From the IMG/VR virus record IMGVR_UViG_2778261574_000002: a stretch of 64,000 bases of DNA. The stretch is one strand, 5' to 3'. The stretch's first letter is position 1; every line of letters starts with the position of its first letter. The DNA comes from a virus (Duplodnaviria > Heunggongvirae > Uroviricota > Caudoviricetes). A program made the translations under genes and the position numbers. A model generated the notes under the pieces. It was not told the origin of the DNA. It worked only from the letters and a program-made list of their open reading frames with translations, and ran no database searches. Positions 35,889-36,477 of this stretch are shown here, piece after piece.

Positions 35889-36311
35889 ATGTCATTCTTT
35901 TCTACGTTAAAAACAGCTTTGTCTTTGAAGGAGAAACTTGCTGCTACTGGTGTTCTTGTTCTGATTTGCGCACTTGTTGGTGCCGGGTTTGCATGGGAAC
36001 GTCATCAGCTAAAGCAAGCCTTGGATAAAATTGGCAGTCTTGATCAGGCTGTTAAGGAACGTGATAAGTCAATAATGGATCTTAACCAGACCATTGAGAC
36101 GATGAACAAAGCAGATCAACATTTTCACAGCCAGGAAGTGAAAAATGAATCAGAACAAGCCAAGTATGCTGACAGGCAAATGGAACGAAAAGCAGAAGTT
36201 CAGAAACAACTGGTTGCGGCGGGTAATGTTCGCCAGCGCATTCCTGCTGACACTCAGCGGTTGCTCCGGGAGTCGATCAGCGAATTTAACGCCGACGCCG
36301 ACAAAGGTTAA
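35889..36311 (+). CDS. i-spanin-like protein
   Basis: 140 aa from MSFFSTLK after CAGGAGGAAG; one N-terminal membrane helix followed by coiled coil. Confidence 0.5.
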   Translation: MSFFSTLKTALSLKEKLAATGVLVLICALVGAGFAWERHQLKQALDKIGSLDQAVKERDKSIMDLNQTIETMNKADQHFHSQEVKNESEQAKYADRQMERKAEVQKQLVAAGNVRQRIPADTQRLLRESISEFNADADKG

Positions 36312-36477
36312 CCACCCTGCCCCCAAAAGTGCGTTTATGTGCAGGATGCCAGAGTTTAGCAGTGAATATTTTGATGATCTGCCAGCGTATATCCTCGATA
36401 CAGAAACGATGCTGATGGGAATTAACAGGAAGAATCGCAACGTCAATGATTACAACCGTGCTATCAGCGGTAACTAA
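36226..36477 (+). CDS. o-spanin-like lipoprotein, partly embedded in the previous gene
   Basis: 83 aa from MFASAFLLTLSGCSG (lipobox LSGC); alternative frame overlapping the 3' end of the i-spanin-like gene. Confidence 0.45.
   Translation: MFASAFLLTLSGCSGSRSANLTPTPTKVNHPAPKSAFMCRMPEFSSEYFDDLPAYILDTETMLMGINRKNRNVNDYNRAISGN

Follow-up and report, generated by a model that had tools for sequence, protein, structure and literature searches.

We characterized two overlapping genes on the plus strand of the window (the whole stretch of 64,000 nucleotides that was analysed) as the genes of an overlapped two-component spanin, predicted to break the outer membrane of the host as infection comes to its close; we assign to this reading a probability of roughly 85%. 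The gene ppfA would encode the i-spanin of the pair and the gene mlp the o-spanin.

The window comes from a phage-plasmid of the P1 family and keeps the P1 gene order over its whole length, between tail-fibre gene S and the region of c1, apart from several mosaic substitutions. Over the 4.1 kb surrounding the pair we observed 98.7% identity to phage P1 across 79% of the length. The closest complete relative was plasmid pAVS0578-B (E. coli, IncY, 94,894 bp), which matches window positions 14434-37646 with 99.5% identity and carries the 589-nt pair at 100% identity; the ppfA/mlp pair is contained in 644 PLSDB plasmid records. Gene names and features of P1 were taken from the GenBank annotation of the P1 record. 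Judged by these matches, the locus is the catalogued ppfA/mlp pair of a P1-type phage-plasmid and, as such, is known already; it is a real but ordinary feature, with slight importance beyond correct annotation. The elements of the pair are as follows.

35878..35883, plus strand: Shine-Dalgarno sequence AGGAGG, 5 nt 5' of the ppfA ATG (sequence; also marked in Kongari Table S1)
35889..36311, plus strand: ppfA, predicted i-spanin, 140 aa (97.9% identity to P1 PpfA; phrog_89; AlphaFold2)
35937..35993, plus strand: ppfA codons 17-35, predicted transmembrane segment LAATGVLVLICALVGAGFA (Kyte-Doolittle)
36133..36138, plus strand: Shine-Dalgarno sequence AGGAAG within ppfA, 6 nt 5' of the mlp ATG (sequence and conservation)
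36145..36477, plus strand: mlp, predicted o-spanin precursor, 110 aa (mature 71 aa), in the +1 frame with respect to ppfA (98.2% identity to P1 Mlp; phrog_30284; P2 LysC; Kongari Table S1)
36145..36311, plus strand: putative dual-coding overlap, 167 nt, ppfA in frame 0 and mlp in frame +1 (divergence drop in comparison with four relatives)
36253..36264, plus strand: predicted lipobox LSGC, Mlp residues 37-40, with Cys40 encoded at 36262-36264 and followed by Ser (sequence and conservation)

The initial annotation had placed the two genes, the second in an alternative frame, at 35889-36477, and we found these coordinates to be exact (35889-36311 and 36145-36477, both on the plus strand). Its description of a membrane-anchored protein accompanied by a lipoprotein with lipobox LSGC was borne out as well, by the hydropathy peak of 2.35 over residues 17-35 and by LSGC at residues 37-40 with Cys40. 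The term 'nested' has to be dropped, as mlp overlaps ppfA by 167 nt and continues for 166 nt beyond the ppfA stop codon. The architecture is that of the 'overlapped' class, as in P2 lysB/lysC, and not of the 'embedded' class, as in lambda Rz/Rz1. An o-spanin gene may be embedded in the i-spanin gene, overlap it or directly follow it; here it overlaps.

The predicted proteins and their overlapping frames

A single hydrophobic segment was detected in PpfA, at residues 17-35 (Kyte-Doolittle 19-mer maximum, as a mean, of 2.35 at residue 17), and this segment is hydrophobic in 20 out of 20 aligned homologues. The N-terminal 17 residues have a net charge of +2, while on the C-terminal side the segment is followed by 104 hydrophilic residues, with 18 K+R and 19 D+E in the charged part. 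PpfA is thus predicted to have the topology of an i-spanin, with a single N-terminal transmembrane domain in N-in/C-out orientation. In an AlphaFold2 model made with a 20-sequence alignment, the confidence of which is moderate (mean pLDDT 70), one helix occupies residues 13-110 and another residues 120-137, with a break at 111-119 (AGNVRQRIP) between them; the periplasmic domain, as modelled, would have the two alpha-helices with an intervening break that are expected of an i-spanin. There is no Cys in the periplasmic part of PpfA, the sole cysteine, C27, being inside the transmembrane segment. Over its full length the protein differs from P1 PpfA by three substitutions (I45L, E46D, E76D). PpfA is matched by phrog_89, 'Rz-like spanin', with E 2.6e-24, and also by the independent spanin families phrog_739 and phrog_214 (E 1.5e-5 and 1.1e-4). 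Homologues of PpfA beyond P1-like elements were found neither by tblastn in 50,697 phage records nor by a word-seeded search in 5.8 billion proteins.

The N-terminus of Mlp carries a basic region, then the hydrophobic core FASAFLLTL, then the lipobox LSGC with Ser at position +2. By the Lol sorting rule, a Ser at +2 predicts an outer-membrane lipoprotein. Mature Mlp (71 residues) is therefore predicted to be an outer-membrane lipoprotein, and it would have what characterizes an o-spanin, namely a lipobox Cys for signal peptidase II with no Asp at +2. The cysteines of the mature protein are the lipidated one and C66, which is located within the invariant AFMCRMPE. In comparison with P1 Mlp we saw two substitutions over the full length (L17Q and V32A), both silent in ppfA. 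The match to phrog_30284 'Rz-like spanin' covers all residues (1-110 of 110) with E 2.9e-77; another Rz-like spanin family, phrog_456, matches with E 3.7e-5. A simple rule for lipoprotein signals, run over the six reading frames of the window, matched the mlp ORF alone, with a chance level, determined from 40 shuffles, of 0.15 per 64 kb on average. The signal peptide is unusually long, 39 residues. Still, relatives do not share the internal Met28 of P1 Mlp, so that the upstream ATG at 36145 is likely to be the mlp start.

To assess the conservation of the two frames, we used four divergent relatives: Cronobacter phage JK004 (L006), a Salmonella contig (L008), a Klebsiella aerogenes-type contig (L009) and a further contig (L011). 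Identity to the window proteins was 58-63% for PpfA and 64-67% for Mlp. In each of the four relatives a PpfA of 140 aa was accompanied by an ORF of 109-110 aa in the +1 frame, with its ATG 256-259 nt into ppfA and AGGAGG 7-9 nt upstream of this ATG. The basic n-region of Mlp, the PTP linker and AFMCRMPE are all kept, and five relatives retain the lipobox in the form L(S/N)(G/A)C with S directly after it. Divergence of ppfA from the four relatives dropped from 0.39-0.41 outside the overlap to 0.23 inside it; at wobble positions it dropped from 0.56-0.59 to 0.36. Such a drop is expected if the overlapping frame is translated, since its second codon positions coincide with the wobble positions of ppfA, and it suggests that both frames are under selection.

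Earlier classification and named spanin systems

The pair has been classified before. Kongari et al. 2018 (PMC6139136) enter P1 gp064 (PpfA) in their Table S1 as an overlapped ('ovl') i-spanin of 140 aa, with 104 periplasmic residues and no periplasmic Cys ('one in TMD'), and P1 gp063 (Mlp) as an overlapped o-spanin of 110 aa, 71 of them in the mature form, with one periplasmic Cys; the 39-residue signal, with LipoP cleavage at position 39, is flagged there as 'too long'. The same work cites Summer et al. 2007 for the pair and names the spanin family 'P1'. Bednarek et al. 2022 also name ppfA and mlp as the (predicted) P1 spanin genes; their sentence calls ppfA the o-spanin and mlp the i-spanin, the reverse of what the sequence features and the Kongari table show. 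In the P1 record ppfA is described as 'possible periplasmic function' and mlp as 'membrane lipoprotein precursor', possibly acting in lysis regulation (by homology), while several GenBank records label the pair as Rz/Rz1 or Rz-like spanin.

The pairs of P1 and P7 (gp064 and gp063) have the same protein lengths (140 and 110 aa), the same overlap and the same ribosome-binding sites as the pair in the window, and the neighbours match too, with upfC and upfB upstream and oriR/repA downstream. Downstream of the pair the window differs from P1 by an extra Gp49-family gene and by UpfA, just 54% identical to P1 UpfA.

Phage P2 has the same overlapped +1 layout in lysB/lysC, with products of similar size (141 and 96 aa). 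Mlp and P2 LysC are 37% identical over 68 residues (pairwise E 4e-8), with the lipidated Cys and the motifs PTP and C-x-M-P in register. The best NCBIfam matches of PpfA and Mlp were the cognate P2 LysB and LysC models (TIGR03495 and NF038368), both sub-threshold: PpfA scored 18.3 bits against an equivalog cut-off of 92.75 and Mlp 14.4 bits against 27, whereas the P2 proteins in the same search scored 174.5 and 128.8 bits. Mlp is a remote relative of LysC, and neither protein of the window belongs to the P2 LysB/LysC equivalogs. PpfA had no significant similarity to P2 LysB, either by BLASTP or by hhalign with the 20-sequence PpfA alignment. Gene order differs as well: the P2 pair directly follows holin Y, endolysin K and lysA (cassette Y-K-lysA-lysB-lysC), while in P1 the pair stands apart from every other lysis gene.

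With lambda Rz/Rz1 the pair shares its logic: an inner-membrane protein of type II, whose two periplasmic helices flank a break, goes together with an outer-membrane lipoprotein encoded in the +1 frame of the same DNA, all of this as predicted for the window. The lambda pair ends the cassette S-R-Rz/Rz1, and lambda Rz1 lies fully inside Rz, unlike mlp, which continues for 166 nt after ppfA; the whole Rz1 precursor has 60 aa, compared with 71 aa in mature Mlp. Disulfide-linked dimers are important for lambda Rz/Rz1, and in this respect PpfA, with no Cys in its periplasmic part, is unlike the lambda protein. Cysteines that can form intermolecular disulfides in the periplasm occur in many two-component spanins, though not in all. 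Homology of the PpfA family to lambda Rz was not detected (hhalign probability of 2%; BLASTP not significant), and no Pfam family matched PpfA or Mlp above threshold. Since the BLASTP and hhalign comparisons of PpfA were not significant, the i-spanin is tied to validated spanins by architecture and PHROG-level links only. We therefore place the pair, on architecture and family matches, in the functional class of two-component spanins, as a probable Rz/Rz1-like pair with a sequence family of its own (PHROG 89 / PHROG 30284; 'P1' of Kongari); it belongs to neither the lambda Rz/Rz1 nor the P2 LysB/LysC sequence family. The initial annotation had proposed that the locus reproduces the Rz/Rz1 arrangement. 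The spanin part of this proposal is favoured by the published classification, by the PHROG matches and by the Mlp-LysC alignment, while an embedded gene order gave way to an overlapped one.

Neighbouring genes, promoters and the other lysis genes

Together with upfC and upfB, on the same strand, the pair makes up a compact cluster, upfC-upfB-ppfA-mlp, of which it is the distal end. This cluster is kept in every relative examined, and the plasmid replicon starts ~1 kb downstream of it.

34768..35052, plus strand: upfC, PAAR-type tail spike tip, first gene of upfC-upfB-ppfA-mlp (Pfam PAAR_motif E 1.1e-5; phrog_281; P1 annotation; cryo-EM, PMC12810830)
35004..35849, plus strand: upfB, baseplate 'tripod' protein, with the P1-annotated start (some records begin 57 nt later) (phrog_1559 E 2e-134; P1 annotation; cryo-EM, PMC12810830)
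37487..38791, plus strand: P1-type plasmid replicon, given as context and not as part of the spanin, with five incC iterons at 37487-37587, repA at 37647-38507 and incA iterons at 38507-38791 (iteron families; Pfam Rep3_N/Rep3_C; phrog_775; P1 annotation)

The location beside the plasmid replicon, pointed out in the initial annotation, is correct; the pair adjoins oriR/repA because of the P1 gene order. The P1 cryo-EM structure of 2026 (PMC12810830) has UpfC at the tip of the spike and UpfB as the 'tripod' of the baseplate. Since the upstream neighbours encode virion proteins, the position of the pair fits expression in lytic growth.

Two predicted sigma-70 promoters (P1ppfA and P2ppfA), both inside upfB, are the only promoters annotated for the pair in the P1 record. 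Our sigma-70 scan ahead of the genes gave no promoter and did not recover these two. A search for the Lpa late-promoter box with the query AAGTTACTT-N4-TACAAT, taken from P1 LPs, found no site with up to 2 mismatches on the plus strand at 34600-35900; the same query recovered the expected perfect site at 62086-62104 of the window. In an alignment of the uhr-upfC intergenic region we saw a conserved C1 operator (34670-34686) and a likewise conserved element, TAnnAT, ~30 nt before upfC, which is too weak for a promoter call. Late expression of ppfA and mlp is what we infer from the neighbouring virion genes only.

The initial annotation also stated that no holin or endolysin is adjacent to the pair in this window, and this was confirmed: tblastn with P1 Lyz, LydA, LydB and LydC gave no match with E below 0.6 anywhere in the 64 kb, and profile searches found neither a holin nor an endolysin among the genes neighbouring the pair. 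Location in a lysis cassette is typical of spanin genes, not obligatory, and within the window the pair has no such location. According to Bednarek et al. 2022, the lysis genes of P1 are distributed over several unlinked operons, with lyz-lydD-lydE forming a late operon, lydA-lydB being part of the dar operon, lydC being monocistronic and ppfA-mlp located elsewhere. The genes lyz and lydA/B/C map to the ~30 kb of P1 sequence left outside the window. In pAVS0578-B, in which the right end of the window corresponds to position 25,284, lydC, lydA and lydB occupy 31.9-33.0 kb, and lyz is found at 41.9-42.5 kb. The lysis genes would thus start ~6.6 kb beyond the window end, with lyz ~17 kb beyond it, and in the plasmid the distance from ppfA is ~33 kb to the nearest lysis genes (lydC, lydA) and ~44 kb to lyz. 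Holin and endolysin are absent from the window because it ends before them and because P1 scatters its lysis genes, so that their absence is no puzzle. More generally, a spanin pair with no adjacent holin or endolysin can simply reflect a window edge together with the dispersed lysis genes of P1.

A 357-aa ORF with an SH3_3 domain (52666-53739) was considered as a hidden endolysin and rejected: only its SH3 part matches an amidase PHROG, a catalytic domain was not detected, and the family to which the ORF itself belongs, phrog_7086, is of unknown function.

Proposed action and alternative explanations

If the pair works according to the lambda Rz/Rz1 model, the inner membrane would hold the anchor of PpfA and the outer membrane that of Mlp, and the two proteins would be joined via their periplasmic C-terminal parts, spanning the periplasm through the peptidoglycan mesh. 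The SAR endolysin Lyz, with its release timed by the holins LydA, LydC and LydD, would degrade the peptidoglycan; loss of the wall would let the PpfA-Mlp complexes collapse, resulting in fusion of the inner and outer membranes, so that the last barrier to virion release would be gone.

CRISPRi knockdown, with plating in top agar containing 5 mM CaCl2 and 5 mM MgSO4, gave EOP values of 1.3 for ppfA and 0.24 for mlp, and both genes were scored as non-essential for plaque formation. Such a score neither proves nor excludes a spanin role. Spanins are often dispensable in laboratory conditions, and knockdown is incomplete. For these reasons the dispensability under CRISPRi, together with a PpfA that has no periplasmic Cys, lowers certainty about the importance of the pair more than certainty about its function. 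One could speculate that the P1-type pair has an added or a different envelope role (expression in lysogens, cooperation with the tail tip), or that P1 has a second, redundant route through the outer membrane. We consider this unlikely; it is suggested by the position in the tail-tip cluster, by the lack of a recognisable Lpa promoter, by the cysteine content of the i-spanin and by the CRISPRi result.

Alternatively, the proteins could form a non-lytic envelope module, a prophage-expressed lipoprotein with its partner involved in exclusion, serum resistance or envelope remodelling and transcribed from housekeeping promoters beside plasmid maintenance genes, in analogy to lambda Bor and the Cor/Llp lipoproteins. 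Adjacency to oriR/repA/par speaks for such a role, as do the sigma-70 promoters being the only ones annotated in the P1 record, with no Lpa box upstream, and the non-essential scores of both genes. These promoters, however, are predictions not recovered by our scan, and the cluster starts with virion genes; furthermore, the lipoprotein never occurs apart from its overlapping partner, a type II membrane protein with a long helical domain in the periplasm, and this pairing is the spanin signature, spanin PHROGs match both proteins, and Mlp is related to an o-spanin from the P2 lysis cassette, LysC. We regard a non-lytic module as quite unlikely. Very unlikely, in our opinion, is that PpfA and Mlp act with the tail-tip proteins UpfC and UpfB, in tip assembly or in envelope penetration at infection, and not in lysis. 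UpfC and UpfB are the proposed membrane-piercing apparatus (PMC12810830), and their genes are packed with ppfA and mlp on the same strand in all P1-like relatives examined. Yet the cryo-EM paper (PMC12810830) mentions neither ppfA nor a spanin and its baseplate protein list does not include PpfA or Mlp, nor are ppfA and mlp mentioned in the main text or the supplement of the P1 virion proteome paper. The lipobox and the N-terminal membrane anchor would place both proteins in the envelope of the producing cell, and adjacency to late morphogenetic genes is common for phage lysis genes; in P2, lysC overlaps the tail gene R.

A different kind of objection to an overlapped spanin is that the +1 frame could be accidental and untranslated, with only ppfA and a short downstream ORF being real. 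We find this scarcely credible. Chance would yield 0.15 lipoprotein signals of such quality per 64 kb, and this one is the only one in the window; the full +1 ORF is conserved in four relatives with its ATG, Shine-Dalgarno sequence and lipobox, at 64-67% protein identity; substitution is suppressed in the overlap, and the lipobox region aligns with P2 LysC. In favour of an accidental frame one could mention the signal peptide, which would be unusually long, and the practice of gene callers: most records and gene callers report downstream of ppfA just an ORF of 46-52 aa. This ORF is a fragment of mlp that begins past the lipobox and is devoid of any signal, and the locus shows in this way that overlapped o-spanin genes get missed or shortened by gene callers.

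Annotation and labelling of the predicted spanin genes

Automatic annotation has cut mlp, the predicted o-spanin gene overlapping ppfA, to an ORF of 46-52 aa whose start lies downstream of the lipobox. Since the annotated ORF begins past the lipobox, most database records of the locus carry no lipoprotein signal.

Shortened mlp ORFs in database records of the ppfA/mlp locus
L002, 2338-2478
L006 (Cronobacter phage JK004), 4458-4592
L007/L008 (L008, a Salmonella contig), 6431-6589
L011 (another P1-like contig), 6449-6589
L017, 43585-43725

The literature holds a labelling problem as well. 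In an Introduction sentence on P1 spanins (PMC9025707) ppfA is called the o-spanin and mlp the i-spanin; judging from sequence features and from Table S1 of the Kongari spanin catalogue, which give the opposite assignment, these labels are reversed.

The mlp-oriR interval and the partition region

Two genes of the window lie between mlp and oriR, and four features are relevant here.

36489-36848, Gp49-family gene (PF13876, E-value 1e-33, Pfam)
36919-37320, UpfA homologue (54% identity to P1 UpfA)
39056-40261, ParA (Pfam)
40278-41279, ParB (Pfam)

P1 does not have the Gp49-family gene. Depending on the relative, we observed the Gp49-family gene alone, UpfA alone or both; given this difference in gene content, the interval is a small variable cargo slot, and it adjoins the replication origin. 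Farther downstream, the partition region (38792-41335) gave no match in megablast comparisons with P1 and with pAVS0578-B, the E. coli IncY plasmid that is the closest complete relative, while both flanks are ~98% identical. Such a pattern suggests that the window may carry a different par or incompatibility type.

Late promoter and C1 operator sites

In a stretch colinear with P1 tail-fibre genes, one site perfectly matches LPs (AAGTTACTT-N4-TACAAT), a late promoter of P1 that depends on Lpa. The C1 repressor operator in the divergent uhr/upfC intergenic region, the counterpart of P1 Odmt/Op68, is kept in distant P1-like relatives.

62086-62104 (+), LPs, perfect match
41434-41452 (+), LPs-type site, one mismatch
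41496-41514 (-), LPs-type site, one mismatch
34670-34686, C1 operator ATATTTATTAGAGCAAT

Replaced and mosaic segments

Three genes in 51566-53739 replace P1 sim-region sequence.

51566-52084, PTP-like protein
52173-52679, protein of a function-unassigned PHROG family
52666-53739, protein of 357 aa, bacterial SH3 domain at its C-terminus (phrog_7086, function unassigned)

A catalytic domain was looked for in the 357-aa protein, and none was detectable. We also observed a 7.9-kb mosaic region (5975-13878), of which other P1-like elements share patches only; among its genes are Ead/Ea22-like and DUF551 ones, which have matches also in hundreds of lambdoid and Stx phages.
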